This document shows, one piece after another, positions 13,255-51,212 of a stretch of DNA of 64,000 nt. A model generated the notes under the pieces. That model ran no database searches and was not told the origin of the DNA. It saw only the letters and a list, made by a program, of their open reading frames with translations. Both the position numbers and the translations under genes were made by a program. This DNA comes from a virus. The DNA is taken from positions 29,369 through 93,368 of the IMG/VR virus record IMGVR_UViG_3300008012_000022; one strand, given 5' to 3'. Position 1 is the stretch's first letter. Every line of letters starts with the position of its first letter.

Positions 13255-13265
13255 CTGTTTATCAT

Positions 13266-33497: not shown

Positions 33498-35034
33498 TAA
33501 AATAATTGTAGGCTAATACCGCTTGAACTGTCTGTTTAAGTATGTTTTCCGTTGTAGTTTGGCGCACCAAAAAAGAATAATCTGCATCAGGCGCAAACCC
33601 ACTAGCAAATGATAATGCATTTGGCACTAAAACATCATTAGTTTTTGCAGTTAAAGATACATTAATCGTTCTTTCTCCGAGCGTTTTACCTGCTCCTTGT
33701 ACTAATATCTCTTCGTCACCGTAGATAGGAATAACAGTATCTCTACTCACAGGTTTTCTATCTGAAATAGTTGCTGTTCGAAGTAGAGTGCCATCTGCTA
33801 ATCCAGAAAACTGTGGATCAGTAGAAAATCTAGAGGTGTCAGACACGGTGTTGCCGAAGGGTTCAAACGAAACATTTCTGTCAACTTCGAAAAGTTCGCC
33901 AGAAGTTACTTCGGGAAAGAGAACTGGAATTTTACTGTATGGCAAGTTGGTGTTACTCTTCCAATAATCTTTGTTACGAGTAAACTTCGTAACGTCGTTC
34001 TTTCCCCTTGACGACACCGTTAGGTTAAAAGTGAAACTGTCAAAACCCTCTGGCGATTCGGTCTTCGCCGCAGAGTAGTCTATATTTGTATTATTATTTC
34101 GGCGCGGGTCATTTGTGAATTCTACATCTAATGTAGCTACATTACCCTGCTCTGATACCCCTTTTGAAATAAGGGTGGGTTGACTGTAGGCACCCGTGTT
34201 AGCTTGAATTACAGCGTCTAATGTGCCAGTGATACCATGTATTATATTCGCTTCGTATGGTTCAGAAAGCGCCCGAATTTCAAACGAATAATTTTTTAGT
34301 TTGTATCCATCTGACTGTAGCACCGTCTTCGAAGTCTCTGATTTAGAAAAAGGAAGGTTAGCAGTTGTTTCTATCCTGCTAGTTTCTAAAGATTCTGAAA
34401 ACTCGACACTCTTGTTAAGTATATCAATCGATTCAGTTGCGACAGGTTTAAGTCCCGCATCTACTCTTCCCCATTCAGAAATACCATCTTCCTGAAACCC
34501 ATAAGCTGGACGGTTATTTAGATATACATTCTTTAAGAATAAGTATGCTTTGTTTAAAAACTCACCACCAGCATCTTGACGATACTTTAACGAAACACTT
34601 CGTTCATAACTATATGAATTCTCGCCGCGATTAAAATTAAATGACTCAGAGAAACTTTCTATATCTTGTGGCGACGGAATTAAATCAGTAAGATTAGATA
34701 GAGCGCCATCTTCTTCAATACGTATACGTTCTTCAATGACAATGCTGCCTTTGGTTCTGTCTACCCCACGTGATTCATCAAACTCAATTGATACTACGTT
34801 ACCGTTACGAAATTCGTCAGCGCCGATTTTCGCCGCTATATTAGGTTGAGCATAAGCAGTTTCAATTGCTTCCATGCCCACTTGTAATTTATCATCTCCA
34901 TCTTCTCCAGTAACATCTTTCAAATGGAAAGAGTAATTGGCAGACACTAATAAACCCCACATGTGTTCACTACCAAAATATTGGAAGCTAACACTGGTGT
35001 TAGAGTTATCTATTTTTGAGATGTATAATTTCAT
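33490..35034 (-). CDS. putative tail protein (distal-tail position)
   Basis: Immediately follows the tape measure; beta-rich. Confidence 0.55.
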   Translation of the reverse strand: MKLYISKIDNSNTSVSFQYFGSEHMWGLLVSANYSFHLKDVTGEDGDDKLQVGMEAIETAYAQPNIAAKIGADEFRNGNVVSIEFDESRGVDRTKGSIVIEERIRIEEDGALSNLTDLIPSPQDIESFSESFNFNRGENSYSYERSVSLKYRQDAGGEFLNKAYLFLKNVYLNNRPAYGFQEDGISEWGRVDAGLKPVATESIDILNKSVEFSESLETSRIETTANLPFSKSETSKTVLQSDGYKLKNYSFEIRALSEPYEANIIHGITGTLDAVIQANTGAYSQPTLISKGVSEQGNVATLDVEFTNDPRRNNNTNIDYSAAKTESPEGFDSFTFNLTVSSRGKNDVTKFTRNKDYWKSNTNLPYSKIPVLFPEVTSGELFEVDRNVSFEPFGNTVSDTSRFSTDPQFSGLADGTLLRTATISDRKPVSRDTVIPIYGDEEILVQGAGKTLGERTINVSLTAKTNDVLVPNALSFASGFAPDADYSFLVRQTTTENILKQTVQAVLAYNYFNE

Positions 35035-38000
35035 TATTTGCTTTTAACTGGTTTAAAATCAAATTCGTAGGTCGTAGCTCCTCCAGTTAATTCTTTTGCA
35101 TCTGCTTCATTTGCAGCTTCACGCAGTTTATCAAACACATCTCTGATCGCGGGAACATCGATAGCTTGACTTACTTCTGCTAATGCCGCGTTAGCACGCT
35201 TCAACTCTTGCGCTACCGCTTCTGAATCTTTCGCCGCAGTAGACATAAAGCCGTTGAACTTCTTCATGTTACCTTGAAACTCAGTTAATGAATCATATAG
35301 AGGTTTTGCAGCAGTATCAATTTTAGCTTTAATCTGATCGCCTAAAACATCTTTGTCTGTTGCAGTTTCAGACGTACCTTTATTCTTAAGAGCATCTTCG
35401 TCTAGTAGGGTATCAATATCTTTCTGTTCTTTATCGAACTTGCTACGTATCTTTTCTTCTTTAGTTGCGTTTGCTCTAGCAGTGTCAGCAAATCCGAGCG
35501 CAGTAGTTCCCGCGACACTTTGTTGAATGATGCCACCCATCTCAGATATTAATGAGTTAACCACTCCACGTAGTTGCTCTCTACCCGCTTCATCGTTAAG
35601 AGGGATCTGGCGAATAGCAGCTTCACCTGCTGTTTTAGTCTGTCTTATTAAATCAATAGATGATAGAACGTCTGATACGGAATCAGCGTTTTGAAGTTGA
35701 GAGAACTGTCTAGTGATTCGATTAACAGGTCCACCAATTTGTCTACCTAATCCTTCGGCCCTTCTGAAATCTAGTTTTTGAAATACTTCTTCCTGAACTC
35801 CTTTGCTGAATCGAACACGACCATTCTCATCTAAAGGTTCAGTTTCACGAGCAATGTTTGTCGCTTTACGAAACGCTTCGAATGTTTCATTACGGAAAGT
35901 AACCTTACCTGAATCACTTACTTCTTTACCTAAAATATCATCAATATTAAATATTTGATTATTGGCTATATTAGAACGTAACCGAGAACGATCTTGTCCT
36001 GCTACTCCTAATTGATCAAACAATACATCGTTGTTAGCGCCGAATGGATTGTTAATATCTATAGTATTTAATCCAGCATTAGGTTGACCTAAGTTTCTAA
36101 ATTTCGCGGCTAAATTATCTACACTCTGACCATACTGTTGAAGGAAAGCTTTGTTTTCAGCACGTGTGCGCTCAAACGCAGCACGTTCTTCAACCATTCT
36201 CTGCTGTTGTAGTTGAACCATCCCCGCGAACAGTTCATGGTTGGCGCTTCGCCATTCCTCAATACCCTCAACATTGATTCCTTTTTTAATGATTTCATCC
36301 ACTTTATCTTCGAACGCTTCAAACGCATCTTTAGTAAGAGGTTTATCGTCATCTATAATAAAGTCTCGAAAGTTTGTTAAATCATTAATTTCTTTTGATC
36401 TCGCATCACGATTTCCGAATGCACCTGAGATTAATTTCTCGCCGCGTAAAGCTTCTTTAGCTTCGGCGGATAATGCATTTAATATACCACCACGAGCATC
36501 ACCAATGAAAGACTTATCTTTAATCTTTACTCGGCTGAATGCTTGAAAGAATTTCTTGTTATCTTCAATACCTCTTAGTTTTGATAGACTAATAGTTTCT
36601 TTTTCGATTCGCTTTGCAATGATATCCTCTGCACGTTTCGCTGCATCTGCTGGACTCTTATCATCAGAAAAATCGAACTCTCCACGTCGCCTTTTACCAT
36701 CAATAGTTTTACGAATAGTTCTCTTGTTTTCAAAGTTAGATCTAGCGAATGTTTCTGCAAATTTCGGATCATTAAGAGCAGTTCTTATATTGTCTACGCT
36801 TTTATCGAAATCAACAATGTTTATTTCAGGCAGTTCAGTACTTAAGTTGAGAGCACTATCAGCATCATTTTTTGCAAGTCTTAGTTTTTGTTCTTCAAGC
36901 TTGAGTAACTTCTGAGACTTTCTGTTTGCTTCATCTGCCGTTCCTTCTGGTAAAAAGCGAGCAAGTGATTCTTGTAAAGATATTTGATTACGCGCCGAAC
37001 CAAAGTCAAACTGTTGGAATTGCTTATCACGTTTTGATATTTGACCAACACGTGATTTTACTACTGTTCTAGTAGTATCTATTCCTAAGTCATCAAATCT
37101 TTGGCGCTGCTCACGTAGTCTATCAATCTGTCCTACTACACGTTCGCCTTGAATTCTTTGTCTACGTGCTTCTGCTTGAGCATTAGACACAACATTGAAA
37201 CCAGTAATTCTACCATCTGCTCCATATGTAGCTAATCTTTCTTGACCCTCTCCAGCTTGTACTGAATTTTCAATTTGATATTGGCGCTCTTGATCATTTA
37301 GTTGGTCAATGGTAAACCCTGTTAATGGTTTGGCAAAGAACTCAGTTAAATTACGAACAGTCGGAAGTTTAAGTTCAAAATTTGCTAATTCTAATCCTGT
37401 TTTTCCGAGAGATTTTCCGAACTTTTCAAGACCTATATCTCCTTCTTCCGCAGAAACAGAAAGGCCCTTTAATGAAGGAATTATATCACTGAAAGAAAGA
37501 CCAAAGTTATCTATTTTACTACTTCCTCCAATTAATTTCCCATCAAAGATATCAAAGTTCTTTTCTACTTTACCAATATGCTTTCCTATAGCATCGAACG
37601 GGGCAGTCAAGGTTTGTATAGCTACGCCTTGAATCGTTTTAAATGTATCGCCTTCTTCCTTTCCTTCTCTAAATAGTTTGGTGCTTAGTCTATCTTCTTC
37701 ACTAGTTTCACCTATCTCACGTTTACGCGCCTTATTAGCAAGAATACCACCACCAATTGCTAAGGCTAATGCGGCAGCTATAGCACCTCCTACAGCAAGA
37801 CCTGTTCCACCTGCTACACTACCACCTATAGCAGTAAGAGCTTTACTTGATCCTGCTGCTGCTAATGGTCCTAACGGAACATTCGACGCTGCTTTACCCA
37901 ATCCTTTCACCGCACTAGATAGAGGTTCCATGGCTGATACAGCAGCCAAACCTAATCCTGTAAATAGAGAAATCTTTCCTGACATCTCTTCTGCCGCCCT

Positions 38001-41000
38001 TGAAGCACTTCTTAAACCACTTTCAGTTTGTTTAATGGCTTTTGTTAGTTCTGCGTGACGTTCAGGGTTGATTGCCTCATCAGTATTCTCAAGCTCACGA
38101 ACTAATTCGCGCAATTTCAAACTAAGTTTATCTACTTCTGGTTGAGATTTGTTAAATTTCTTATTAAGTCCTTCATCTAATTGAGGTAATAAAAATGATG
38201 CAGCAAAACTAAGACCGAGAGCCGCACTACCTAAACGCCCGCCTTGCTTTGGAGGTTTTGATGATTGTGTTCTATTTTGAGATATTCCAGAAAGAGATGT
38301 AGATTTACCACGTCTAGCTCTTGCTCTAACCCTTTTTCTATCACGTTCACGTGCCTTTTTATCTTCTGCTCTTTGTTGAGCGGCGGATAATTGTCTATTT
38401 GGATCATCGTCTGGTAAGCTAGAGAAATTTCCACCTCCACCACCTCCACCAGTGCCTCCACCTCCACCAGATCCTATGCCACTACCAGATCCAGTGGCAG
38501 CACCAGCGCGACGTGTATTCAATATAGCGCCCGTAACAGGATCTATAGAAGTTGCCCCACTACGAGATAATACAGGAACAGGTCGTGGTCCTACTGAACC
38601 ACGACGAGTTAATGGTGGGACTTGTGGCGCTCTCCGAACACCTATAGTTCTATCACCTTGTTGTTTAGTGCGTGCTAACAATGTCGGCACAGGAGGTTTA
38701 CCTCTTCTGACTGCGACACGTGGAGGTCCACCACGACCTACTACTCTGCCACGGTTTCTTTTAGCAAATTGTTCTTGACGTGCTCGTGCTAATACATCGT
38801 TTCTAACCAATCTCTGTTTGCCAGTTTGAGGATCGCTCACAATAGTATAACCACTATTCGCCGCTTGAAGTCTCCTTCTTTGGTCTGGTGTTAATTCCTC
38901 AGGATCTATTGATGCAGGTTTAGACTTCGCTGCTTTTTTAGCTGGCTCTGATGGCTCAGGTGCAGGATCAGGTTCAGGTGCCCGTCTTTCTCCTGATGGT
39001 GATGCAGGTATAGCACCTGTGTCTGGATCAAATGGAATTCTCTCTTGAGTTAGCGGATTTACAAGTTCGCCGCTAGCTGCATCGAAGATAAACATATCAT
39101 CGGCAAAGTTTGGCGTTTTGCCTTTCACCATTTTCTTAACAGCTTTAGTAGCCTCAGGGAATAACTTTCTCCATTGTTTGGCACGAGCAGTATTACTAAA
39201 TGCCATAGCATAAGTCTCTGCAAAAAACTCTTGATCACTCAAGTTAGATACAGCAGAATCAGCTAATAAATTATTCGCTAAATTACCAGCGAAACCATTT
39301 CGGCGCTTGTCACGTTGTAGTGCAACTCTAAATCCTGCTGAACTAGATAACAATCCTGCTAAACGATCCCCTGTAGATGCCCCTACTCTTGTTTTTGAAA
39401 AATCAAAAGCATGACCAGATTCATGAAGTAATACATTTAGTGCTTCCTCTTGTGCTCGTTTACCACCGATACCACGTAGCCCCAATCTTGTGTTACTAGT
39501 TAAACCTAATATACCTGTTTCGCTATCGAAGCTACCACCTAATCCACCTCCACTGATGTTACCAAATCTTATACGTCCACCATTTGGACCTTGACTTAAT
39601 AAAGTGTCTAGTTGTTTACGAGGTAACCTTTTGAAAAGTTCTTTTACATCTTTGTTGTGTGCAAACTCTGTGCCTTTAAGAAGTTTGTTTACTCTGCGTC
39701 TTTTACCACCTAATAGGTCAAACAAACCAGCAGCACCACGTCTACCCAATCCACCAGCAAATCTTACGCCTCTACCTATATCTCTGATAGCATCAGGAAA
39801 TCCTCTGATAGCATCTCCTGCAACACCATATATACCTTGACTCTTTTTCAAAAGTTTGAAGGCGCGACTATTAGTGATTCTTTGAATACGTGAAAAGTTA
39901 GGGTAAACATGCTTACCCGCTATAAGGTCACGATTAGATACAGATGATGCTCTACCACCAGCTTGATCACGAGTATTCGTTACCACTAGACCCATAGGGT
40001 TGTGGCGTTTCGCTAATGGGTGAGTGTCTAATCTTACCTGATGTGGTTTAACACCTGTTCCTGTAGTTTCTCGCGCAACAGCATCAGCAATAGGATTCCG
40101 CGCAAATGACGGTATTGTTCCAACACCCTCATCAGGAATTTTTATTCTATATTGAGGATTATTAAGCTCCCATTCGACTAGCTCTTGATCGCTGTTGATT
40201 TCATTTTTTTGTCGTTTTAACTTTTTTTCTTCTTTACGGAGTTTTGCTACCCTTTTTGCTTCCGTAGGATAGTCACCAACACGTGGCGATTTGGCCCATA
40301 CATTAGACCTATAGAAATCTCCATCCCTATGAATACCCTCAACAGGTTTCGTTGTTTTGATCTCACGAGTTGTAGAATTAATCTCAGCAATCTCATCAGC
40401 TATATCATCAATACGTGGCTGAATAACTCTTTCAAAATTTTCCGCTGCATTAGTTTGAGCCTTTGATAAAATTGAAGGCATAGCAGCAGTTCGTTCCCGA
40501 AGTGCACGTAAGTTTGTTATTCCATAAGAGTTCTCAGTTAACCAAAATCTAGCACCTTCCTGACCAACTACCTTCTCTAGTTCACTAGCAAATTGTTGCG
40601 TTATTTCCTGATCAGGTCTATCGAAATCTAATAGTAATTTACGAGCGCCCGTTCCCGAAACATCCGTAGCAGATCTAGCCTTAACAACTACAGCATCAAA
40701 TACATCATCGATTAAATCTTTAGAGGAATCGGGATCAAAGTGAGTAAATAAAGATGAACCCGCTTCTTCACGAGTAAGTTTTATATTATCATCAAAAGCT
40801 GGTAGTTTAACACCAGCATCATCTAGTTTATCTTGACCAGCCACACGGATACTACCTTTGGTTGGTCGAACAATATCACCTTGAGCGTTTCTAACAAAAG
40901 GAAGTCTACTACTAAAACCTTCTCTGAAATCTGTATTAGATACTGATACCGCTGGACCTTCACCTATAGTAGCCGCAGCAATATTGGCGCGATCTCTTTG

Positions 41001-44000
41001 GTTCAATAGTTTACCGCGAAGACCATGATCATCAAAACCACCACCTCCAATTACTCCTTCTGCTTGCTTCTTACTAAAGCTTCCTCCATGCGAAATAAGG
41101 AATACAGTATTTTCTGGCGCAATGCCATGTTGACCTGCAATCCTTGCTAAGTCTGCGTGTCCCGCAGTTGTTGGTGAAAAGCCTCCAACCGCTACAGCTA
41201 CTTGACCACTCTTCAACTGTGGCGTATTTCCTTTAAGAAGACGACCATCATTCAATGTTACATCATGCAAACGCGCCAAACTTGATCCAAAGTTCTCTCT
41301 AATGTTTACGAACGCTGGTCTAGCACGATCACCTGCACCACCAATTTCAAACTTGCGGCTAGCTTCAATTGCAAGACCTTCAAGTATAGCAGTATCAGTA
41401 GTTGGTTGTCTACCGAATCTAGCTTGACCCGCTCGTTCCAATCCTTCGCCAGTGCTTGAACGGAAATGTCTACGTCTTAATATCTCTGAGTGTGCTGGAT
41501 TTTCGCGACTTGAAAGCACTACGATTCTATTCAGACCTTGAACTATATTTCTATCAATACCTTCACCTTGAATAGCATTGTTCAACAGTGGCGAAGCAGA
41601 AGTCTCTGATCTTGCGATGATAACATCGTCCAATGCATCAATGTCCGCAGGAGTAAGAATGTCTACTGTCTTCTGTCCACCGAACGCTTGTCCTGCTTTA
41701 CCTCTATTTCCACCACGAGATAAGAAAGTTTTTCCTGCACCTACTGGACCAACAACTAAGCTAGTTCTTTTTTCTTTTTCAATAGCGCGTTGTGACAGGA
41801 ACTTGTTATAGTTAGCTACGCTTTGTGGAGGTAGTTTACCTGTCATGGCATATTGATGATAACCTTGAGCATCAATAATACCATACTCCAACATAGCGTC
41901 TGCTACCTTATCTACATTCTTTGGATTTTGTAGAACATCGGAATCAATTATACCTTTGCTACGTCGTGTTCCTTGAATAACATCTCCAGCTTCGTTTTCA
42001 AACTGTCGCAATGGTCCACGTTGAAGTTCGCCGCCTGTCAGTTCTCTAATCTTACCATTCGACGCTCTTGCAAATATTCTTGCGAAGTTAGGTATATATC
42101 CTTTAGCAAAGGTAATACGATTTTCAAGACGACCACCTATTCTTGAACCCATACCTGTAACACGTCGCTCAAGGTCAGCCATATTTTTAAATGGCCCATT
42201 AGCTTCACGTTCTCTTACGATAGCCCGTGCTCGATCTGCATCAATCAATGGTAATTGTGCAGCAACAAGATCATCTACTGATACTCTATTGATATTTGGA
42301 TCGTGCCTTCTACCAATTTGATTAGCTGCACGGTGCCTGTTAGCTGATGTATCATTCGGATCAACTACATGTTGTGATAGTTCAGATCCTCCTTTACCAT
42401 CACTTCTATATAAAGTTTCTAATTTCGGCGCACCCGCTGAACTTGTTAGTTTAGCTTGTAAATCAGCACGACGCTTCATTTCCTCAGGGGTGATGTGTCC
42501 ACCACTGATCATCATAGTTTGAAGCTTCTTAGGAACTTTACCAGCTTCTATTTGTGCCTGACTAAAAATAGGTTTACCTAAAGCATTTTGAATAGTAAGT
42601 ATATCATCAAAACTCTGTAACGGAATTCGAGCAGCAATAGCTTCACTCATTGCTGGACCAACACCATCATATGCTGCCTCGATAGCTTTAGCATTACCCA
42701 ACTTGTTGATTTTATTAACCATACTTTGGGCTGGACCAATCGCGCCTGTAACTGGTGTAACTAGATCATCAAAAGCGTCATCAAACTTCGGCGCTCCCTT
42801 CTTCTTCGCCAAAAGGATTCTTTCAAAACGAGATTCTGTTTCTGATAAGCGGCGAGTTTTACCAGTTTGAGGGCGATGAGGAACAATAGCGAATTCTGGC
42901 TGTTGCGCTATCTCATCCATCAACTCGAAAATTTCATCGAGTTCATCAGGTTGGCTACGAGTAGCAGCGCGAATCTTTTTTGTCCGTCCGCGTAAACCTA
43001 ATTCTTTTCTTTCAGCACTAGATAGATGCTCTAAACCACTAGTTAGAATGACCCTATCATTCCTCTGACTAGCTGGTAAAAGAGAAGTGTCTGGTTTTTT
43101 TCCTAACTGACCAGATAATGACATAAGATAGGCAATCTCTTCTGGTTCTAAGTTATCTAAACTAGTCAGATGAATTTGTGGATCACCAGTTCTTTTTGAC
43201 TTATGAATATTGCTTACGCTTGAAGTAATTCTTACTCTTCTACCATCTGGAAGTGTATGGACATAATCAAGTGGCTCATGAACACGTCTTGAATCAGGAC
43301 CGTATCTTTGAGTTGATGGAATGTGATGGCGGCGATTTATACGAAGCGAAGCAAAATTCGGAAAGACACCTTTGGTTCCTGCTAACGCTTGATAGATAGC
43401 AGAATTCATTCCCCTATCATTTCCTAATGCAGCTAATAGATCTTTAGAGCTTGCATATCCCTGTTGTATTCCACGGGATCTGTTTATACGACCGTCAGCA
43501 TAGGAACCGAGAAGTGTGTTTAAAGATTCTCTATCTCTTACCGACAATCGTTGAAACATTGGATTCTCATATAACGCAAAGAAGTCTACATAATCTGTTT
43601 GTTTCGGATTACGGAATGGTGGTTTGCGTAATGGTCTACGTCCACCACCTGTATTGAAGCGGTTGAAATTACTACCACCACGTCCATGATGAAAGGAAGC
43701 GAAGTTTGGCACATCACCTGCGCCAACGTCACCAACTGCTGAAAAAGCGACGGGTGTATCAGGAAGTTGTTTGGCCGCTGTTGATAGATGAAACAACCTA
43801 TCTGGCTCAGGATTTTTAACCCCTGCAAGTTTAAATACTTTCGCTAAATATTCACGAAATTCTGCTTGTTCTTTAAGAACATATCCGACAGACTCTTTTC
43901 CTTTAGCTTCTCGTATAGCATGAAATTTTTTACCAAAATTAGCTGATTGAGGTGGATCAATTAATTTAAAAGCTTCGGCTAGCCTTTGTTGTTCTTCTTG

Positions 44001-47000
44001 CGATAGTTTTTTACTAGCAGCACGAGACAGTAAAGTAATATGTCTGTCTTCAATTGGAGACATACCATGAGGAACCTCAGGAGGATTATACCTTCTATCT
44101 AAACGTGTAGGCATAATAGCAGCACCTTTCATAACTGGTCTACCATTAATGATACGAGCATAGTTAGGTATCACCGCAGAATCTCCACTGATAGGACCAG
44201 CCCCAACAATTTCAGTCTCGTGATTATTCATCACGAATGGCTTACCACCAATTGTACCTTTGCCTCGTTTAGCTCTAACAGTTGATGGCGCACCGTGAGC
44301 CATTGCAGTTAACTCTTCTCTTGCACGCAGTTCAGGTGGTATATGCCCACCTGCAAAATATTGAATAGGTTCACGTCTACCGAAACGTTTAGATTCTATG
44401 TTTTGAGAAGAAGTTCTTAATCCACGACGTTCGCGTCTTTGTTGGAACCTCCCTTGTCTCTCTTGTCTAGCTGCTCTTTGAACTTTTTGTTGCTGTGTGA
44501 GTGTGCTTTTATCAGGTAATGAATCACCTGTAGCATCAAAAAACGCATGTCTCCAATCACCCTTGTATTCAAAATTAAGGACTTTCTTCACAAAGTCCTT
44601 CATATTGCGATCTGACGATGAGACTTTAGCCTCGAAATTTCTTGTGATTGTTGGTGCGCCAATTAATCCACGAAGTTTGGTAAGGTTTTGAGAGCCTGTA
44701 ATATCAAAATTATTTGACCCGTCACCTTGAGACGAAAGGAGTCCGAGATGATCAACAATCGCCGCCTCGAATGCTGCACCTACACCAGCAGCTAGAGCAC
44801 CTTGCGTGCCACCATCACCACCACCTATTAAGTGATTTCTCGCCGCGTGTTTTGTTGATCTGTTGTTACCTGCTAGTTCATAAGTTTTCGCCCATACAAC
44901 AGCTTCGTCTGCAACTTGTTCGATTATATCATTTTTGAAACCTTTCGCCGCTTCATCAACCTTTGGACCCTTCGGACTATAAAAATTAAAAGCATTGGCC
45001 GCAGTAGTATATGGGATAGGACGACCAGAATTAAATCTAGCACCATCTGGTGCTAACTTACTTATACTACGTGACAGTTCTTTTTGATTTAGCGACGGTA
45101 GTAATAAACCATGCTTACGAATAGATTTTATCTGTAGACTACCACGAGCCAATACAAGTTCTGTTCCTGCTTCAATGGCTTTTTGTATTCCTTCATGGTT
45201 CTTACCAAATCTTCCTTTAAGAGATTTTTCAACAAACGAGTTTAAGTTACGTCCTGTTCCTTGTCCTTTTAATTCTATTTTACCACCTTGAGAGAAAGCT
45301 TTTGAAGCCCATGCTCCCATGGTAGTTCCGCCCAACGTCCTAAATAGCTTCAATGCATTAGGTGGAATGTCACTAACATCAAATAGTTGACCTGTTCCTC
45401 CACCATGAGTAACACCAAACGCTGAAAATACTGCCGCTTCAAATGCCGAACCGATTAAACTACCGATAGCACCACGAGCACCTTCACCACGTTTCAATTC
45501 TCCTACAATACTTTCTGGCGTAGAAGAAGTTCTACCAAAAACAGATTCATTATATCCTACTGCGGATTTAGCGGCGAACTTTAAGAACCTTTCCTCTAAC
45601 AGTTCACGAGTTTCAGCCATATTGACATCTTCCTTCGTAGCTGGATAGAAACCCTGAAAAGCTCTCTTACCGTCTCTCTTAACAAATTGCCATGGAACAT
45701 TTACTTTCTTATTATCTTCATCAATAAAGCTGGCTTGTCCTTTACCCGCACCACTCGATGGTCCTAAATATCTTAATGAGTTGGCATCAGGAACCGCTAT
45801 AGCATATGAACTAATACCTTTGATTTTTAATCTAGAGGCGTCATCTGCCCCTTGTATATCTTTACGAACACCTGTCGCAGCTTTATCTACTAATGAAGAG
45901 AAACGATTCGCCGCTACACCTGATAGATCATAGTTTTTAAGTTTCTCCAAATCACCAGCAGAGACAGGACTGCCATTAAAAGTATATGAACCTTTCCGTC
46001 CAAATACTGAGTCAGATATTCTTTCAGATCCAGCTACACTGTTAAGTGCCGAATCTTTATATACAGCAGTAGCTAGCTCATCTATACTATTAGCATTAGT
46101 ATCAATATTTCTACTGCCATCGTCCGCAGTAACAATCTCATAAGTCGTCTTCTTATTCCAGTTGTCATTAATAACTGATGAGTCTATTCGTGAACGTAGA
46201 TTCGGTGAACCAAATAAAGTTCTGATTCTGTTACCTTCTGGTTGGGAATTAATAATTTCATCAATATTGCTTTGATGACTTCTATCAACAAACAAACGAA
46301 GCATTTGTTGTTGCTGCTCTGGTGTTCCTTTGAACCCATCTGCACCTGTGTTGAAAATTTTTCCGAACCTTTCTGACTGGAAATAACTACGTTGAACATG
46401 GTTCTCAATAGGAGTTCCATATGCAAAAATCTTTCCTAATTTTCGGTGTTTCGGTGGAGCTTTATATGATGGTATAACAGCAGCATCTTTACCACCACCA
46501 GCACGTGGCACCATCAATTCTTGATCGTTAAAAATAAAGTGTTGTCCACCAATCTGTGCAGGACCAGTAGACATATAGACATTAATTGGTCCACGCGCAC
46601 CTTCGGCACGAGCACGACGCTTCTCTTCTGAAATCAGTTCTCTATCGAAGACGGGTCTTGCGTAGTCGAGCGTATTTTTTTTTATAGTGCCCGACATACC
46701 AGCCGACATACCAGCCGATGGATAGTTACCAGCAGCAAATGAAGATATTGGTCTATTGAAACGATTAGTAAGCTGACCTCCTGCTGAATAGCCACGACCA
46801 CCTCTCGCATATACCCCCGCAGCAAGATCACGTAACAAATTCTTTTGGACTAACAGTAATGAGTTTTCTTGTTTGATCGCATTTTGAATAAGACGATGCT
46901 TCTGTTCAATAGTAACAGATTTACTTGCTATACTAGCACGTAACTTGTCGTCTTGAACCAACAGTTGAACTATACCACCCTCAATATCTTTGATTCTTTG

Positions 47001-48404
47001 AGAAGCAGAGTTAAGATGTAGAACCTCATTTAATCCCTGTCGTGCAAATCTACCTACCAGTTGCAAAATTTTAAGGAACGCACCTGTAATCAGAACTACA
47101 CCCGGACCTTGTATAAATTTTGCTATACCTTTAAAGATATCTTTAATGACATTAGATCCTGATTCAGGATCTAATGCTGTGCCGAAAAAGTCTGAAACTT
47201 TATTCGCAAGTGTAACTAGATCTTTAATGATCGGCGCTAGAGTAATCGCCCCAACCTTATTGCCGAGATCGGTCATACCTACAACCAACTCATTGATTTG
47301 AGAAGATAGAGATTTAGCTAGCTTTTCATTTTTATCAAAAGCCTCACTAGTAGCGTTAGATGAAATAGCTGTAGCTTCTCGAAACAGACTTTGATCTTTA
47401 GCTAAGTCTTTTAATGCTGCTGATACAACGTTAATCTGGAACACACCACCAGCAAGTTCTTTAATCTTATTCTTTTTAGTGGGATCTGATAGTCGTTCCA
47501 GTGCAGCAGACAACGCATTCAGCTTTTGAATACCAGATTGCGATGCATCAATTTGAACACCTAAGTCTTTTAGTTGGGCAAGGGAATCTGTTCGTGAAAT
47601 ACGAGTAAAAATAGATTTTAAGGCGTTACCAATAACAGCACCACCACGAGCGGTTGTTTGTTGAACAGCAGTAATAATACCGAGTAGTTCATCAAATGAA
47701 ACTCCAGCATCTTCCGCTGTCGCACCAGCACGTTGGAAACCATCAGCCAAATCTTTAGCAGATACAGCAAACTTTGTATCAACAGCAACGATCTTGTTAA
47801 CAATCTCTTCAGCTTGTAGCGCCGATCTTGTATAACCGTTGATCGCAGCAGTAAGAGCATTTACTGATGATACAGAATCAAGTCCTGAAATACGAGTTAG
47901 AATCAATGCGGCATTTAGTCGTTCCTGAGTCTCTGCTGCTTTCAAACCTTGACGTGCAAGTTCCGCTGCACCGTCAGCTACAGTAGTAAAAGATTGACCT
48001 GTGTTCTTGCCAATTTCGAAAATAGCCTTACGTAGATGTTGCATCTCTTCAGCCGTTCCGCCCATGATCGAATCAATTTCGATCAGTCGCTTTTCAACTT
48101 CAATAGTTGTACTTACTAAAGCACGAAAAGATTGGGTAACTGTATTTAATACAGCAGCAGTAGCACCGAACGCGAACACACGTGCGGTAGCAGCATCCAT
48201 AGATTTACGGAATTCGGTTGCTTGACCAGTAATTCGTCCCAACGATTGTTGGAAACCTTTCATACCACGAGGATTCAAATGGAGACTATTAAAATTCCCC
48301 TGAATTTGTTTCGCAGTCCGTCTGACCTGACGGTTAAGATTGTTCGTGTTGAGGTTAAGTTGAGCGTTGAACACTAACGCTCCACCTCTACTTATACTTG
48401 CCAT
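35034..48404 (-). CDS. giant tape measure protein with embedded cargo domains
   Basis: N-terminal TP901-type core (ELARQG, AVSAKDLADGF, GNALKSIF); helical C-terminus; internal REase-like, HhH, P-loop, NTase-like and HEXXH domains. Confidence 0.9.
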   Translation of the reverse strand: MASISRGGALVFNAQLNLNTNNLNRQVRRTAKQIQGNFNSLHLNPRGMKGFQQSLGRITGQATEFRKSMDAATARVFAFGATAAVLNTVTQSFRALVSTTIEVEKRLIEIDSIMGGTAEEMQHLRKAIFEIGKNTGQSFTTVADGAAELARQGLKAAETQERLNAALILTRISGLDSVSSVNALTAAINGYTRSALQAEEIVNKIVAVDTKFAVSAKDLADGFQRAGATAEDAGVSFDELLGIITAVQQTTARGGAVIGNALKSIFTRISRTDSLAQLKDLGVQIDASQSGIQKLNALSAALERLSDPTKKNKIKELAGGVFQINVVSAALKDLAKDQSLFREATAISSNATSEAFDKNEKLAKSLSSQINELVVGMTDLGNKVGAITLAPIIKDLVTLANKVSDFFGTALDPESGSNVIKDIFKGIAKFIQGPGVVLITGAFLKILQLVGRFARQGLNEVLHLNSASQRIKDIEGGIVQLLVQDDKLRASIASKSVTIEQKHRLIQNAIKQENSLLLVQKNLLRDLAAGVYARGGRGYSAGGQLTNRFNRPISSFAAGNYPSAGMSAGMSGTIKKNTLDYARPVFDRELISEEKRRARAEGARGPINVYMSTGPAQIGGQHFIFNDQELMVPRAGGGKDAAVIPSYKAPPKHRKLGKIFAYGTPIENHVQRSYFQSERFGKIFNTGADGFKGTPEQQQQMLRLFVDRSHQSNIDEIINSQPEGNRIRTLFGSPNLRSRIDSSVINDNWNKKTTYEIVTADDGSRNIDTNANSIDELATAVYKDSALNSVAGSERISDSVFGRKGSYTFNGSPVSAGDLEKLKNYDLSGVAANRFSSLVDKAATGVRKDIQGADDASRLKIKGISSYAIAVPDANSLRYLGPSSGAGKGQASFIDEDNKKVNVPWQFVKRDGKRAFQGFYPATKEDVNMAETRELLEERFLKFAAKSAVGYNESVFGRTSSTPESIVGELKRGEGARGAIGSLIGSAFEAAVFSAFGVTHGGGTGQLFDVSDIPPNALKLFRTLGGTTMGAWASKAFSQGGKIELKGQGTGRNLNSFVEKSLKGRFGKNHEGIQKAIEAGTELVLARGSLQIKSIRKHGLLLPSLNQKELSRSISKLAPDGARFNSGRPIPYTTAANAFNFYSPKGPKVDEAAKGFKNDIIEQVADEAVVWAKTYELAGNNRSTKHAARNHLIGGGDGGTQGALAAGVGAAFEAAIVDHLGLLSSQGDGSNNFDITGSQNLTKLRGLIGAPTITRNFEAKVSSSDRNMKDFVKKVLNFEYKGDWRHAFFDATGDSLPDKSTLTQQQKVQRAARQERQGRFQQRRERRGLRTSSQNIESKRFGRREPIQYFAGGHIPPELRAREELTAMAHGAPSTVRAKRGKGTIGGKPFVMNNHETEIVGAGPISGDSAVIPNYARIINGRPVMKGAAIMPTRLDRRYNPPEVPHGMSPIEDRHITLLSRAASKKLSQEEQQRLAEAFKLIDPPQSANFGKKFHAIREAKGKESVGYVLKEQAEFREYLAKVFKLAGVKNPEPDRLFHLSTAAKQLPDTPVAFSAVGDVGAGDVPNFASFHHGRGGSNFNRFNTGGGRRPLRKPPFRNPKQTDYVDFFALYENPMFQRLSVRDRESLNTLLGSYADGRINRSRGIQQGYASSKDLLAALGNDRGMNSAIYQALAGTKGVFPNFASLRINRRHHIPSTQRYGPDSRRVHEPLDYVHTLPDGRRVRITSSVSNIHKSKRTGDPQIHLTSLDNLEPEEIAYLMSLSGQLGKKPDTSLLPASQRNDRVILTSGLEHLSSAERKELGLRGRTKKIRAATRSQPDELDEIFELMDEIAQQPEFAIVPHRPQTGKTRRLSETESRFERILLAKKKGAPKFDDAFDDLVTPVTGAIGPAQSMVNKINKLGNAKAIEAAYDGVGPAMSEAIAARIPLQSFDDILTIQNALGKPIFSQAQIEAGKVPKKLQTMMISGGHITPEEMKRRADLQAKLTSSAGAPKLETLYRSDGKGGSELSQHVVDPNDTSANRHRAANQIGRRHDPNINRVSVDDLVAAQLPLIDADRARAIVREREANGPFKNMADLERRVTGMGSRIGGRLENRITFAKGYIPNFARIFARASNGKIRELTGGELQRGPLRQFENEAGDVIQGTRRSKGIIDSDVLQNPKNVDKVADAMLEYGIIDAQGYHQYAMTGKLPPQSVANYNKFLSQRAIEKEKRTSLVVGPVGAGKTFLSRGGNRGKAGQAFGGQKTVDILTPADIDALDDVIIARSETSASPLLNNAIQGEGIDRNIVQGLNRIVVLSSRENPAHSEILRRRHFRSSTGEGLERAGQARFGRQPTTDTAILEGLAIEASRKFEIGGAGDRARPAFVNIRENFGSSLARLHDVTLNDGRLLKGNTPQLKSGQVAVAVGGFSPTTAGHADLARIAGQHGIAPENTVFLISHGGSFSKKQAEGVIGGGGFDDHGLRGKLLNQRDRANIAAATIGEGPAVSVSNTDFREGFSSRLPFVRNAQGDIVRPTKGSIRVAGQDKLDDAGVKLPAFDDNIKLTREEAGSSLFTHFDPDSSKDLIDDVFDAVVVKARSATDVSGTGARKLLLDFDRPDQEITQQFASELEKVVGQEGARFWLTENSYGITNLRALRERTAAMPSILSKAQTNAAENFERVIQPRIDDIADEIAEINSTTREIKTTKPVEGIHRDGDFYRSNVWAKSPRVGDYPTEAKRVAKLRKEEKKLKRQKNEINSDQELVEWELNNPQYRIKIPDEGVGTIPSFARNPIADAVARETTGTGVKPHQVRLDTHPLAKRHNPMGLVVTNTRDQAGGRASSVSNRDLIAGKHVYPNFSRIQRITNSRAFKLLKKSQGIYGVAGDAIRGFPDAIRDIGRGVRFAGGLGRRGAAGLFDLLGGKRRRVNKLLKGTEFAHNKDVKELFKRLPRKQLDTLLSQGPNGGRIRFGNISGGGLGGSFDSETGILGLTSNTRLGLRGIGGKRAQEEALNVLLHESGHAFDFSKTRVGASTGDRLAGLLSSSAGFRVALQRDKRRNGFAGNLANNLLADSAVSNLSDQEFFAETYAMAFSNTARAKQWRKLFPEATKAVKKMVKGKTPNFADDMFIFDAASGELVNPLTQERIPFDPDTGAIPASPSGERRAPEPDPAPEPSEPAKKAAKSKPASIDPEELTPDQRRRLQAANSGYTIVSDPQTGKQRLVRNDVLARARQEQFAKRNRGRVVGRGGPPRVAVRRGKPPVPTLLARTKQQGDRTIGVRRAPQVPPLTRRGSVGPRPVPVLSRSGATSIDPVTGAILNTRRAGAATGSGSGIGSGGGGGTGGGGGGGNFSSLPDDDPNRQLSAAQQRAEDKKARERDRKRVRARARRGKSTSLSGISQNRTQSSKPPKQGGRLGSAALGLSFAASFLLPQLDEGLNKKFNKSQPEVDKLSLKLRELVRELENTDEAINPERHAELTKAIKQTESGLRSASRAAEEMSGKISLFTGLGLAAVSAMEPLSSAVKGLGKAASNVPLGPLAAAGSSKALTAIGGSVAGGTGLAVGGAIAAALALAIGGGILANKARKREIGETSEEDRLSTKLFREGKEEGDTFKTIQGVAIQTLTAPFDAIGKHIGKVEKNFDIFDGKLIGGSSKIDNFGLSFSDIIPSLKGLSVSAEEGDIGLEKFGKSLGKTGLELANFELKLPTVRNLTEFFAKPLTGFTIDQLNDQERQYQIENSVQAGEGQERLATYGADGRITGFNVVSNAQAEARRQRIQGERVVGQIDRLREQRQRFDDLGIDTTRTVVKSRVGQISKRDKQFQQFDFGSARNQISLQESLARFLPEGTADEANRKSQKLLKLEEQKLRLAKNDADSALNLSTELPEINIVDFDKSVDNIRTALNDPKFAETFARSNFENKRTIRKTIDGKRRRGEFDFSDDKSPADAAKRAEDIIAKRIEKETISLSKLRGIEDNKKFFQAFSRVKIKDKSFIGDARGGILNALSAEAKEALRGEKLISGAFGNRDARSKEINDLTNFRDFIIDDDKPLTKDAFEAFEDKVDEIIKKGINVEGIEEWRSANHELFAGMVQLQQQRMVEERAAFERTRAENKAFLQQYGQSVDNLAAKFRNLGQPNAGLNTIDINNPFGANNDVLFDQLGVAGQDRSRLRSNIANNQIFNIDDILGKEVSDSGKVTFRNETFEAFRKATNIARETEPLDENGRVRFSKGVQEEVFQKLDFRRAEGLGRQIGGPVNRITRQFSQLQNADSVSDVLSSIDLIRQTKTAGEAAIRQIPLNDEAGREQLRGVVNSLISEMGGIIQQSVAGTTALGFADTARANATKEEKIRSKFDKEQKDIDTLLDEDALKNKGTSETATDKDVLGDQIKAKIDTAAKPLYDSLTEFQGNMKKFNGFMSTAAKDSEAVAQELKRANAALAEVSQAIDVPAIRDVFDKLREAANEADAKELTGGATTYEFDFKPVKSK

Positions 48405-48422: not shown

Positions 48423-49280
48423 TTATGTAACATAGTCTTCGGGTTTTAAATTTTCTTCTCCACCTCGTGAATTAACGAATTCGCGAATATTCATTTCTTC
48501 CTGTTGACCACCGTTCTTCTCGTCGGGGTCATAATTGTATAGCGCAATAGGATTATCTATTACACTAGCTGGTATATCAGGTATATTATCTATCTTGCGT
48601 CGAAGCACAAACGAATAAACTAATAAGTTCTTTTGGAATATAGTTAGTTCGTATATGTTCTTGCCAAAAATTTTTAAAGGATCGGCACTAGAAAGAAGAA
48701 ACAATTCAAAAAAGGATGGATTATAACATCGTCTTAATGTAGCGTCTTGATCCATCAAGTCGTCATATTTCGTCATGAAAGTCGGCATGATTGACATAAC
48801 CGTTGCTTGATCCGTAGGTTCTATACAATCTTCGTCATCAAATATGAAGCGCCGAAATAACTCCATATTTACTTTTTCACTCACATAGTTCTCTAGTGAG
48901 AAACGTGTTAAAGCTTCACGTTTTATTCTTAGTTCCTCTAAACGATGAGTTGTTTCGTTTAGGTTATTCTGGAAGGTTTGCAACAAAGATGGTTCGTCCG
49001 CTACTTTTTTGAGAGCCTTTTCTTGTTTTTCTGCCAACCATTTTAATTCAGTAATCTCCGCTTCTTTTTCGACTGACCAACCACCATTAGATTTTGCCGC
49101 TTGCAACATCTCCTGTTCATCTAGCATACCTCCTTGTTTAGCACGTAAAGTATACCGCTCTTTGAATTCGCCAGACATTTCTAGCTCAAAGAGTGTTGGG
49201 TGCTTATAAAAAAAGACTCCCCCGTTTTCTGGAAGGAGTCTTGATTTACCAGCTAAAATCTCGTAGAAGCACAAATCCAT
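48423..49280 (-). CDS. putative tail assembly chaperone
   Basis: Directly upstream of the tape measure; helical and acidic. Confidence 0.5.
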   Translation of the reverse strand: MDLCFYEILAGKSRLLPENGGVFFYKHPTLFELEMSGEFKERYTLRAKQGGMLDEQEMLQAAKSNGGWSVEKEAEITELKWLAEKQEKALKKVADEPSLLQTFQNNLNETTHRLEELRIKREALTRFSLENYVSEKVNMELFRRFIFDDEDCIEPTDQATVMSIMPTFMTKYDDLMDQDATLRRCYNPSFFELFLLSSADPLKIFGKNIYELTIFQKNLLVYSFVLRRKIDNIPDIPASVIDNPIALYNYDPDEKNGGQQEEMNIREFVNSRGGEENLKPEDYVT

Positions 49281-50105
49281 TTAAGAAGCAGATTCTTCTG
49301 CGACTTCTTCTTTAGCTGCAACTTTTTTCTTAGCTGTCTTTTTGGAAGGTTTCTTTTCTGGAACTTCCTCTTCCTCTTCCACTAGTTCAGGAAAATATCG
49401 TGCATAGTTTTTCTCCACTTCCTCTGAAGTATGCCCCATACCATGATACCAAAGGTTGATAACGCGTGAAAGTTTTTCTAATGACGCTGCTACAATTTTC
49501 TTTTTCTTCGATAAATCGTCAGTATCGGCATCTTCAACATCATCTAAGAATTCAGAATAAGCTGATAGTTTTTCTTCAAAAGTATTACCGTCAAATAACG
49601 GGAACGTTTCTCGTTCTTCTTTACCATCTTTCTCTACAGCTTCTTCGAAGTGTGCGGTTTGAAGAACGAACCATTTGATCATATGTTCCTCTGATTTGGC
49701 GTCTGCGGAGTTGGCATACATTACCTCAAGGTCACGGTCCATATTAGCAATATTAAACTGAATATTGGCATACGCGTCTTTTGCCTCAATTAACTCTTCC
49801 TGTTGATCGTCTGAAAGGTCTTTTGCACCCTCAAAGAACTGAATTGTTCGTTCACAATCAGCTAACTTTTCGATAGCACTTCCTAAATCTTTAATCATTT
49901 TGTCGGAATATGCACCTCCAATATCACCATACTTTTTGTTCATCATGCTTCGGCTAAGAAAACCTGCATTTAAAAGTTGGTTAAATTTTTGAGAAAAAAC
50001 AAATTCCGCATCCTCAATCTGCCCGTGATTAGGCTTTTTAATGATAACCGTTACTGGCTTATTGTCGATATCTACATCGAATTGATATATCTGCTTCATA
50101 ATCAT
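49281..50105 (-). CDS. putative tail assembly chaperone
   Basis: Between tail tube and tape measure; acidic coiled coil. Confidence 0.5.
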   Translation of the reverse strand: MIMKQIYQFDVDIDNKPVTVIIKKPNHGQIEDAEFVFSQKFNQLLNAGFLSRSMMNKKYGDIGGAYSDKMIKDLGSAIEKLADCERTIQFFEGAKDLSDDQQEELIEAKDAYANIQFNIANMDRDLEVMYANSADAKSEEHMIKWFVLQTAHFEEAVEKDGKEERETFPLFDGNTFEEKLSAYSEFLDDVEDADTDDLSKKKKIVAASLEKLSRVINLWYHGMGHTSEEVEKNYARYFPELVEEEEEVPEKKPSKKTAKKKVAAKEEVAEESAS

Positions 50106-50134
50106 ATTATATTTTCTTAAATAAGAAATATCAA

Positions 50135-50602
50135 TTAACTAGTAAATATATAATTTCCACTGGCGTCTTGAAAGTAATATCCATTTTGAGACATTACAGC
50201 TACAGAGTCTCCCGTGTTGATAACAAAACTTATGTTTGCTACGTTATCATCAGAATAACCTTCAAAACGAATAGCGTCTATAAACCCTGTATTGTAGATA
50301 TTGTTTGCAATAAATGATTCGTTAAGAAAGTATGATAAGCGTCCAGTTGCTTCTGGTTCATTATCTCCATTATAATCGTAATTACCACTGATAGAAAAGG
50401 TTCCGTTCTTGCTGTAACCTGCAACGAAATCCCCTCGTTGATCGAAGATGTAGCCCGAAACTCCTGAGAATGATATTACGGGATAGAAGTCTGCTCCTGT
50501 TTGCCCTAACTGTAATAAGAATCCGCTCTCTGGAACCCTTACAGAAATATCAGTATTGAAAGAGAAATCAACATTGACGTAACCTAACAAATAGTCTTTC
50601 AT
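50135..50602 (-). CDS. putative virion protein
   Basis: Beta-rich and [S/T]G-rich, in the tail operon. Confidence 0.55.
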   Translation of the reverse strand: MKDYLLGYVNVDFSFNTDISVRVPESGFLLQLGQTGADFYPVISFSGVSGYIFDQRGDFVAGYSKNGTFSISGNYDYNGDNEPEATGRLSYFLNESFIANNIYNTGFIDAIRFEGYSDDNVANISFVINTGDSVAVMSQNGYYFQDASGNYIFTS

Positions 50603-51144: not shown

Positions 51145-51159
51145 ATACCTTTACACAAC

Positions 51160-51194
51160 AAAAAAACCGTCGCCCCTTGCGGAACGACGGTTTC
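51160..51194 (-). terminator. intrinsic terminator after the tail tube gene
   Basis: AAACCGUCGUUCC-GCAA-GGGGCGACGGUUUUUUU. Confidence 0.85.
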
Positions 51195-51212
51195 AAAAAA
51201 CTTTAATTATTA

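Follow-up and report, generated by a model that had tools for sequence, protein, structure and literature searches.

The window analysed here is a stretch of 64,000 nucleotides (nt) from a virus, corresponding to positions 29369-93368 of the 93,368-base IMG/VR record IMGVR_UViG_3300008012_000022, for which CheckV estimates a completeness of 67%. It contains a single uninterrupted open reading frame (ORF) of 4,456 amino acids (aa), here called P0001, located on the minus strand at 35034-48404, which matches the tape measure protein (TMP) families PF10145 and TIGR01760 as well as the PHROG TMP families. We consider it probable, on balance, that P0001 is the tape measure of an uncultured freshwater tailed phage, in which a scaffold holds exchangeable cassettes bounded by a short peptide motif, and that these cassettes constitute a probable payload carried into the host. 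Judged by its sequence, P0001 is a polyvalent tape measure, since it displays several unrelated effector-type domains which vary between relatives, in the sense of Iyer et al. (2017, PMC5512222). The resemblance to polyvalent proteins, suggested by an earlier inspection of the letters and their translations (the sequence-only reading), is thereby upheld for a giant TMP.

The P0001 gene is real and belongs to a natural phage population, and is not an assembly artefact, because another contig holds a protein cluster identical to P0001 and contigs from four other freshwater runs (not the likely source) reproduce the gene. These contigs jointly cover the whole gene (29-30 of 30 bins), and those listed show 0 differences and 0 gaps, with no contig alone spanning it. 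For a 4.9-kb stretch from the middle of the gene, half or more of the sampled words were present in 16 freshwater metagenome runs; no RNA runs were listed among the sequencing runs holding the gene. In what follows, residue i begins at nt 48404-3(i-1) and all features of the gene are on the minus strand.

Scaffold, relatives and junction peptide

The N-terminal part of P0001 is firmly assigned, by profile searches, to a TP901-type TMP core. The core (aa 16-454, 47043-48359) was matched by PF10145 (2e-26; 93.6 bits against a cut-off of 33.2), TIGR01760 (3e-31; 108.8 bits against a cut-off of 28.8) and phrog_4211 (1.5e-46), and ends in a first hydrophobic region (aa 426-454). A second hydrophobic region, at aa 3391-3559 (37728-38234), opens the last 1,065 residues and consists of three segments, the strongest being aa 3525-3559, and is followed by a C-terminal ruler-like part (aa 3560-4456, 35037-37727) whose composition is low in glycine and proline and rich in helix formers. 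From the second hydrophobic region to the protein end, ~950-1,100 aa were found in the four TMPs where this was measurable. By hydropathy, a modular middle of ~2,800 residues is situated between the two hydrophobic regions. Directly ahead of the second region, translation and composition reveal a Pro/Arg/Gly-rich low-complexity linker with a Gly run (aa 3101-3390, 38235-39104), which is absent from one relative (L002) and mostly absent from another (P0003). The claim of a TP901-type tape measure with non-ruler modules in its middle is borne out by these TMP profiles and by the comparison with relatives, and translation together with motif scans recovered, in place, every motif that the sequence-only reading had named.

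Comparison of related tape measures, as proposed in that reading, revealed conserved ends and a variable, shuffled middle. The sole protein of similar length that matched the middle was the 4,611-aa P0003, from a Logan assembly. It aligns with P0001 in four blocks: aa 25-1416 with 20-1373 (49% identity), aa 1566-1751 with 1739-1909 (~40% identity), aa 1743-2840 with 2387-3407 (35% identity) and, in the C-terminal stretch, aa 3391-4415 with 3574-4570 (26% identity). The stretches between these four blocks are unrelated, and a module with the zincin-like signature HExxH...EF[FL]AE stands at aa 2994 in P0001 and at aa 2132 in P0003, a difference of position which, on these alignments, is module shuffling.

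A degenerate-pattern scan of IMG/VR identified 24 loci with a P0001-type core (35-57% identity), the complete TMPs among them ranging from 1,701 to 4,465 aa. Their middles could not be aligned by BLAST to the P0001 middle, except for one ~90-aa module. At least 25 uncultured phages, whose TMPs measure 1,701-4,611 aa, belong to the family.

The closest relatives, L001 and L002, have TMPs of 1,701 and 1,904 aa, respectively, with orthologous flanking genes that are 32-65% identical. L002 maps onto P0001 as the core plus a small module A (9-608 with 13-647), one of the E/D/ExK units described below (636-867 with 818-1071), and a module termed K (840-951 with 2726-2838), with hydrophobic region 2 starting immediately afterwards (954-1076 with 3385-3506). 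P0001 therefore exceeds L002 by ~2,500 residues, distributed over three blocks. Family-wide, the distance from the core to module K varies from ~345 to ~2,790 aa, and the part after module K measures 942-1,099 aa in 7 of 11 TMPs; the corresponding value for P0001 is ~1,070 aa after subtraction of the zincin and the linker. When the P0001 gene, its middle and module K were compared with 50,697 cultured-phage records (INPHARED), no megablast or tblastn match to the middle was obtained. The matches to cultured phages were confined to the N-terminal core, at ~25% identity, in TMPs of Bacillus, Staphylococcus and Enterococcus phages.

The junction motif occurs at every module boundary. The logo derived from 96 sites in 17 TMPs spans 11 residues, N-[FY/A]-[AS]-x-G-[FY]-[IV]-P-N-[FY]-[AS], and compares with a shuffling expectation for P-[NS]-[FY]-[AS] of ~0.03-0.25 per protein; its consensus can be written N-[FY]-A-x-G-[FY]-[IV]-P-N-[FY]-[AS]. 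The window holds eight copies found by motif scan, all within the TMP gene: aa 645 (IPSY variant, 46461-46472), aa 1413 (IPNYA, 44157-44168), aa 1566 (VPNFA, 43698-43709), aa 1682 (FPNFA, 43350-43361), aa 2105 (FAKGYIPNFA, 42081-42092), aa 2765 (IPSFA, 40101-40112), aa 2835 (YPNFS, 39891-39902) and aa 3098 (TPNFA, 39102-39113), the last of which closes the zincin module. Motif copies mark the limits of the aligned blocks, at aa 647 for L002, at aa 1416 and 1566 for P0003, and at aa 2838-2840 for both.

Codon choice varies from copy to copy, so that selection acts on the junction peptide and not on the DNA; a DNA repeat driving recombination was rejected on the same ground. Similar peptides are present in the TP901-type TMP of Bacillus phage Stahl (L025, KP696447.1), where F-F-A-N-G-G-I-T, A-Y-A-N-G-G-V-T and N-G-F-V-P-N-G-G, at aa 1369-1394 and 1442, resemble the two junction halves, including a looser [FY]-A-x-G-G motif. 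The junction peptide may thus be, as far as these likenesses go, a lineage-specific form of a wider TMP feature. The junction peptide most likely serves either as a site of maturation or cleavage or for docking, holding the chain in register inside the tail tube. Pb2 of phage T5 undergoes cleavage after R1127, in the part that separates its hydrophobic stretch from its peptidase domain, with both fragments retained in the tail (Linares et al., 2023, PMC10038345). The sequence around this cut, N-S-F-V-P-R/A-E-G-G (the slash marking the cut), bears a loose likeness to the junction, sharing only F-V-P and A-x-G-G.

Modules and domains of the middle

Six domain types had been named in the sequence-only reading, and four of the six are backed by profile or structure, the exception being the nuclease-like units, which gained no such backing. 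The most secure is the ComEA-type helix-hairpin-helix (HHH) DNA-binding domain (aa 2037-2099, 42108-42296). HHH_3 (PF12836, 1.6e-6) was matched over aa 2037-2088 with 28.6 bits, above its gathering cut-off of 27; TIGR01259 matched as well, as did TIGR00426 (8.7e-7, under its cut-off). Furthermore, an exhaustive HMMER search with this domain recruited dozens of ComEA-like proteins at E-values between 1e-10 and 1e-3. The HHH assignment, as first proposed, is firm on these profile matches, and those of the P-loop, nucleotidyltransferase and zincin domains are moderate.

The P-loop kinase-like domain (aa ~2149-2360, 41325-41960) is delineated by a Walker A motif, an Arg-rich lid (RRRxxR), an AlphaFold2 (AF2) model and structural neighbours. 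Its Walker A, GPVGAGKT (aa 2219-2226, 41727-41750), is invariant in five TMPs together with the Arg cluster of the kinase lid, in which R2311, R2312 and R2315 do not vary, and the Walker A is kept in P0003, P0005, P0006 and P0008. This region is the best predicted of the model, with predicted local distance difference test (pLDDT) values of 70-89 over model residues 40-250. The top structural neighbours of the P-loop model are all P-loop proteins, the best being the zeta-toxin kinase 6epi_F (Z 6.2, 156 residues aligned). Motif conservation and P-loop-type neighbours are consistent with the P-loop that had been proposed, the support being moderate at a best Z of 6.2.

The domain that follows is a candidate HUP-class (cytidylyltransferase-like) nucleotidyltransferase (NTase; aa ~2399-2590, 40635-41210), recognised by its motifs and by VIA fold matches. 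The motifs are GGFSPTTAGH (aa 2407-2416, 41157-41186) and VSGTGAR (aa 2582-2588, 40641-40661), the latter continuing as VSGTGARK. Both are invariant between P0001 and P0003 (in the first, at G, F, P, T, G and H), and three further TMPs carry GAFSPxTKGH...RTxGISGTxAR, with GAFSPSTKGH in P0005 and P0006. In the VIA comparison, model residues 290-470 (pLDDT ~40-67) matched glycerol-3-phosphate cytidylyltransferase 2b7l_A with Z 7.8 and a root-mean-square deviation of 2.9 over 109 of 115 aligned residues; Fom1 CyTase 5x3d_A (Z 7.6), PPAT and NadD (Z 6.8-6.9) were also matched. No Pfam or NCBIfam match to PF01467 or TIGR00125 was obtained with P0001, and P0003 scored below the cut-off on TIGR00125 (1.3e-3; 18.9 bits against 27.7). 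Likewise, Foldseek returned no hit at E <= 0.001 for the AF2 model of the kinase and NTase. The HxGH-class nucleotidyltransferase is hence favoured by motifs and fold matches, although the curated profile cut-off was missed.

The zincin metallopeptidase-like module (aa 2905-3100, 39105-39692), identified through its motifs and through profile and feature matches, resembles the lethal-factor (LF)/MtfA type, which we take to be distinct from the M23-like muralytic type. It contains HESGH (aa 2994-2998, 39411-39425) and, 65 aa apart from it, EFFAE (aa 3059-3063, 39216-39230); the glutamate in this EFFAE-like helix is presumably the third metal ligand, as in LF and MtfA. The motifs are also present in P0003, P0004 and P0070, and in an alignment made without P0003 the H, E and H of the first and the E-x-x-A-E of the second are invariant in P0004 and P0070. 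For this module, Pfam gave no match on P0001 or P0004. The stand-alone P0070 (209 aa) matched Peptidase_M91 (PF14891) at 2.6e-4, with 21.8 bits against a cut-off of 25, and more weakly M90 (PF06167; 0.019, 15 bits) and M76. In parallel, ESM Atlas features (recognition 2800) pointed to PF07737 ATLF as the best-scoring Pfam set, which made up 16 of the 30 hits with scores reaching 0.95; M90 appeared in further hits. A profile search against the PDB produced only non-significant matches to PPEP-1 (M34) and Zmp1 (E 1.4-4). The proposed zincin protease is thus supported in its HExxH plus Glu motif and in its family resemblance in the Atlas, and falls short of a curated profile cut-off.

Two further conserved units had been described as restriction-endonuclease-like. 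Unit 1 (aa 955-1080, 45165-45542; motif at aa ~985-1046) and unit 2 (aa 1178-1295, 44520-44873; motif at aa ~1209-1260) are of the same kind. G..G..F-E, F-D and [ED]-x-K are invariant in 11 aligned instances across the family (alignment A3 for unit 1), and the residues E ... D ... (D/E)xK are present in the expected order in both units; the helix bearing FE is Gly-rich and hydrophobic. A nuclease fold of the PD-(D/E)xK type, with its alpha-beta-beta-beta-alpha-beta core, found no support in profile, feature or structure searches: no PDB profile match was obtained, the AF2 model of unit 2 from a 12-row alignment gave a mean pLDDT of 43.5 with two short strands only and was uninterpretable, and a VIA-wide search with this model returned only coiled-coil matches, meaningless at Z <= 4.4. 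In the ESM Atlas the unit reached a recognition of 2199, below the recognition threshold, and no nuclease family was named, the only Pfam family listed being YeeR_C in 23% of one cluster. A profile search for small stand-alone relatives yielded three unannotated fragments, none of them named, with one labelled GNAT by its source. The conserved residues are what remains of the nuclease label, which is unproven; nor are the units variable cargo, as they constitute a conserved family-core module found across the family.

The remaining modules are smaller or lack a named fold. Module A (aa 560-648, 46461-46727) and module B (aa 1345-1417, 44154-44372; also delimited by per-segment phmmer) are the first and second copies of a ~70-aa internal repeat (aa 589-647 with 1358-1415, E 1.6e-5), ending in the IPSY junction variant and the IPNYA junction, respectively, and module A is conserved in P0003, L001 and L002. 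Modules with no assigned fold occupy aa 1418-1985 (42450-44153), with junctions at aa 1566 and 1682, as deduced from the P0003 blocks and per-segment phmmer; aa 1418-1565 have no counterpart in P0003, and a Pfam search of aa 1418-1985 gave no match. A word-indexed search with aa 560-1420 for shorter homologues returned none. A long helical hairpin at aa ~2637-2757 (40134-40496) is tentatively predicted, at low pLDDT, from AF2 secondary structure and from VIA matches to hairpins and coiled coils (Z 8-9).

Module K (~90 aa; aa 2755-2845, 39870-40142) has the junction motif on both sides. By iteration of a hidden Markov model (HMM), one copy was found in nearly every family TMP (two in L014), usually as the last module ahead of the C-terminal part, and its alignment (A8) contains invariant R-E, N-P-x-G, N and D. 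Its paralogues within P0001 are aa 589-647 and 1358-1415, and all three are bracketed by the junction motif on both sides. PDB sequence and profile searches with module K gave no match. Module K is also present in two proteins of 302 aa (P0021) and 322 aa (P0064), both without a Pfam domain.

Pfam analysis of 11 family TMPs found PF10145 in all and otherwise one GNAT only. This GNAT acetyltransferase domain (PF00583, 2.6e-5) occurs in 1 of the 11, and a 164-aa fragment matching the E/D/ExK profile (P0081) is labelled GNAT by its source. The cassette repertoire is therefore wider than the domains in this window.

Genomic setting

Upstream of the TMP gene, the tail genes of 285, 274, 155 and 399 aa (48423-52412, minus strand, including an HNH/EndoVII-like insert) have orthologues in the same order in L001 and L002, at 32-65% identity. 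Downstream, the genes of 514, 520, 453 and 237 aa (29867-35034, minus strand) have orthologues of 37-48% identity directly after the L001 and L002 TMPs, and presumably form a distal tail/baseplate module. The conserved block consists, upstream, of 289, 399, the HNH insert, 155, 274 and 285 aa and, downstream, of 514, 520, 453, 237 and 854 aa. Also upstream of the P0001 gene are a gene resembling portal genes and a putative capsid gene. Pfam and PHROGs searches over 20 neighbouring genes were nearly empty, and the flanking genes had no match to a named tail family.

The insert is an HNH/endonuclease VII-like gene (50602-51144, minus strand; phrog_1035, 2.2e-20) between the 399-aa and 155-aa tail genes. 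In L001 and L002 the gap between these two genes is ~65-80 nt, too small to contain an endonuclease gene, so that 50602-51144 looks like a homing-endonuclease insertion. Elsewhere in the window, genes for a DnaB-like helicase (3755-5338), the large subunit of ribonucleotide reductase (13266-14912) and a glycosyltransferase (23036-24919) are those of a large lytic-type phage genome. The sole hint of a host comes from a 49.7-kb contig (L026, JAYYZJ010000011.1) binned in a metagenome-assembled genome labelled Thermodesulfobacteriota; its positions 6840-16388 encode a 3,183-aa family member with five junction motifs. This contig could be a prophage or a mis-binned phage contig.

Two irregularities were seen among the contigs of the four freshwater runs. 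At 38048-38511 the contig depth was 2-4 times that of the rest of the gene in three of the four runs, with a smaller excess in the fourth, and loose contig ends were numerous at 38432-38469, within the Gly-run/low-complexity coding stretch (aa ~3300-3450); the depth excess is probably cross-mapping of simple sequence from other organisms. In addition, contigs in three to four runs join 36505 to 47697 and 37086 to 47457, skipping 10-11 kb, at depths of up to 33x compared with ~5x. At these joints the shorter side fits by 18-22 letters only. Deletion variants of the gene are disfavoured by the short sides and the higher depth, which probably reflect other organisms or repeats; the skipping contigs may derive from a relative that is commoner and has a far shorter tape measure, or may be due to chance.

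Proposed delivery of the modules, alternatives and known systems

In the explanation that we propose, the architecture is what the comparisons above show: the scaffold comprises the TP901-type core with its hydrophobic region (aa 1-530), module K followed by the second hydrophobic region, and a C-terminal ruler-like part of ~1,000-1,100 aa. Between the hydrophobic regions, the lineage has inserted independently evolving modules, each ending in a junction peptide; in this phage they are the two family-specific units, the HHH, the pair of P-loop kinase-like and cytidylyltransferase-like domains, the helical hairpin and the zincin-like module. Delivery is an inference from TMP biology. Tape measures exit the tail when infection occurs and enter the envelope; since the modules form one covalent chain with the TMP, they would be carried in by it and reach the host with, or just before, the DNA. 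The cytoplasm would be the side to which the loop joining the hydrophobic regions is exposed. There the HHH could hold the incoming DNA, and the kinase/NTase pair and the zincin could act on host or phage substrates before phage gene expression.

Known tape measures offer parallels for parts of this arrangement. In TP901-1, the TMP's N-terminus lies head-proximal and its C-terminus at the tip, and for the loop that joins the hydrophobic regions a cytoplasmic location is predicted (Mahony et al., 2016, PMC5099701). The TP901-1 protein shares with P0001 the core family (TIGR01760/PF10145), the two hydrophobic regions with a loop and the C-terminal ruler, but it has 937 aa, a loop of 129 aa, aromatic repeats of 11/18 residues and no enzyme domains, whereas the P0001 loop of ~2,900 aa is full of modules. 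The nearest published case is gp96 of Thermus phage P23-45 (also P74-26, G20c and TSP4), a 5,002-aa TMP with a fused virion RNA polymerase that transcribes the pre-early genes, its proposed place of action being the TMP pore while DNA enters (Chaban et al., 2024, PMC10770324). Like P0001 it is a giant TMP with an enzyme in the same polypeptide, together with a metallopeptidase and transmembrane regions. In P23-45, however, the enzyme is one large N-terminal two-barrel RNA polymerase, in contrast to the chain of small cassettes between core and C-terminal part in P0001; no junction motif or module shuffling is reported for it (PMC10770324), and no sequence relation to the P0001 middle was found among cultured phages. 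T5 pb2, which is matured into pb2* and pb2C (PMC10038345), has its enzymatic domain downstream of a hydrophobic stretch, as in P0001, but this is a single C-terminal muralytic domain and not a multi-module array.

Polyvalent proteins, like P0001, are giant and virion-associated and string together several effector-type domains which vary between relatives; the lethal-factor-like zincin is recurrent among them and is proposed to be a processing enzyme (Iyer, Burroughs, Anand, de Souza and Aravind, 2017, PMC5512222). Their carriers are MuF, portal, DarB-like, relaxase and N4-RNA polymerase contexts, and the term 'tape measure' is absent from PMC5512222, whereas the carrier of P0001 is a TMP with a junction peptide.

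Several observations weigh against the payload reading. The family is known from sequence alone, with no cultured member, and folded globular domains should not fit the lumen of the tail tube, which leaves the storage of the cargo unexplained. Among the domains of the P0001 middle, the HHH alone passed a curated Pfam cut-off. The AF2 model of the kinase and NTase has a mean pLDDT of 49.5 and its fold matches lie at Z 6-8, where chance similarity is common; the E/D/ExK unit, which is the commonest family module, and module K have no assignable fold. The zincin is absent (no HExxH) in most relatives that carry the junction motif, so that it is not a general processing enzyme, and this role was rejected. 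Moreover, a position-weight scan of T5 pb2 with the junction ranked the mapped cut site 4th, within the shuffle null; since the mapped site is not singled out, the junction as a maturation site of the T5 pb2 type is a weak lead only.

A more specific version, which appears rather unlikely to us, takes the junction, whether used for maturation or for docking in the tail lumen, as a plug-in point for enzyme swapping and the kinase/NTase pair, the HHH and the protease as a pre-transcriptional counter-defence kit delivered through the tail. NadR, CoA synthase and PAPS synthase follow the same domain logic, a P-loop kinase combined with an HxGH nucleotidyltransferase. Here, such a pair could synthesise or replenish a nucleotide cofactor where the DNA enters, or else modify nucleic-acid ends there, ahead of any phage gene expression.

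The payload reading must also be compared with one in which P0001 is purely a ruler, all 4,456 residues being extended in an extremely long tail (~560-670 nm at 0.126-0.15 nm per residue) and the motifs being relics or structural elements that play no part in the host. This would agree with the family-wide units having no demonstrable enzyme fold and with TP901-1, in which tail length is linear with TMP residues (118 nm for 937 aa; PMC5099701). We regard it as unlikely. The Walker A and Arg lid, the [HT]xGH and ISxT motifs, and the HExxH plus Glu are conserved between proteins that are only 31-41% identical in these parts, which argues for selection on activity, and the HHH scores above its Pfam threshold. 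Furthermore, a pure ruler would require a large tail change, given that TMP lengths differ 2.3- to 2.6-fold although the neighbouring 399-aa tail ORF is 61-65% identical. A long tail is in any case compatible with cargo, as P23-45 combines one with an active fused enzyme (PMC10770324). The cargo may therefore lie extended in the tube and add to its length, giving a tail of ~560-670 nm, as above, if all residues count; with the core and the C-terminal part alone it would be ~200-240 nm. The sequence-only reading had treated an invariant middle with tail length scaling with all 4456 aa as evidence against cargo; this is too strict, because the enzyme-bearing 5,002-aa TMP of P23-45 goes with an extremely long tail, so that cargo and scaling would be compatible.

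It is likewise improbable that P0001 is an assembly-time polyprotein, a means of co-expressing several proteins whose junctions would be cleaved while the tail forms; the middle modules, wholly or in part, would then be set free in the producing cell, or packaged at another place, and would not travel inside the tail. The conserved peptide at every module boundary would suit such a scheme, as would the proteolytic maturation of Lambda gpH and T5 pb2 (PMC10038345) and the presence in P0001 of a zincin, the kind of enzyme proposed by Iyer et al. as a processor of polyvalent proteins (PMC5512222). Most motif-bearing relatives, however, possess no zincin, and the T5 cut site as mapped does not score with the motif. 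Even there the cleavage products both stay in the tail, so cleavage alone would not strip the cargo from the virion. Least probable of all is an envelope-directed role, with the modules opening an entry channel in cell wall, periplasm or membrane, like the muralytic domains found in other TMPs, instead of acting as cytoplasmic effectors: metallopeptidase and transmembrane domains are characteristic of many TMPs (PMC10770324), the metallopeptidase of T5 pb2 is muralytic (PMC10038345) and the Gly-rich hydrophobic helices of the E/D/ExK units could be membrane-active, but the kinase/NTase pair and the ComEA-type domain need nucleotides and DNA, a better fit to the cytoplasm or the DNA path, and the zincin is of the HExxH lethal-factor/MtfA type.

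Compared with P23-45 gp96 and the polyvalent proteins, the new elements here are a multi-cassette array within a TMP, a junction peptide dedicated to it, and cassettes that are gained, lost and re-ordered while the gene order stays the same. Tape measures with embedded cell-wall-active motifs are familiar, for instance the Rpf-like motif of mycobacteriophage TM4 and the lysozyme or peptidase domains in TMPs of Staphylococcus and Gordonia phages; such segments, of which a TMP contains one or two, act on peptidoglycan and are not required for tail assembly. The P0001 modules, by comparison, look nucleotide-, DNA- and protein-directed and number eight or more. Proteins that accompany phage DNA into the host are known to do so as internal proteins of the capsid, as MuF, portal and DarB fusions, or as N4-type virion RNA polymerases. 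To our knowledge, the P23-45 group is so far the only one in which a TMP is documented to carry an enzyme directed at the cytoplasm.

The family poses a physical puzzle, in that a lumen ~4 nm wide would have to accommodate foldable domains amounting to ~2,800 residues, with presumably three copies of them. It also provides a natural series of deletions and insertions (1,700 versus 4,456 aa with the same tail genes) in which to ask whether embedded domains count in tail length. More broadly, it suggests that TMPs can serve generally as modular carriers, marked by a junction peptide that can be recognised. If this is so, the junction would serve as a sequence signature for finding candidate injected proteins in metagenomes, and may offer a possible design rule for loading proteins into phage tails.

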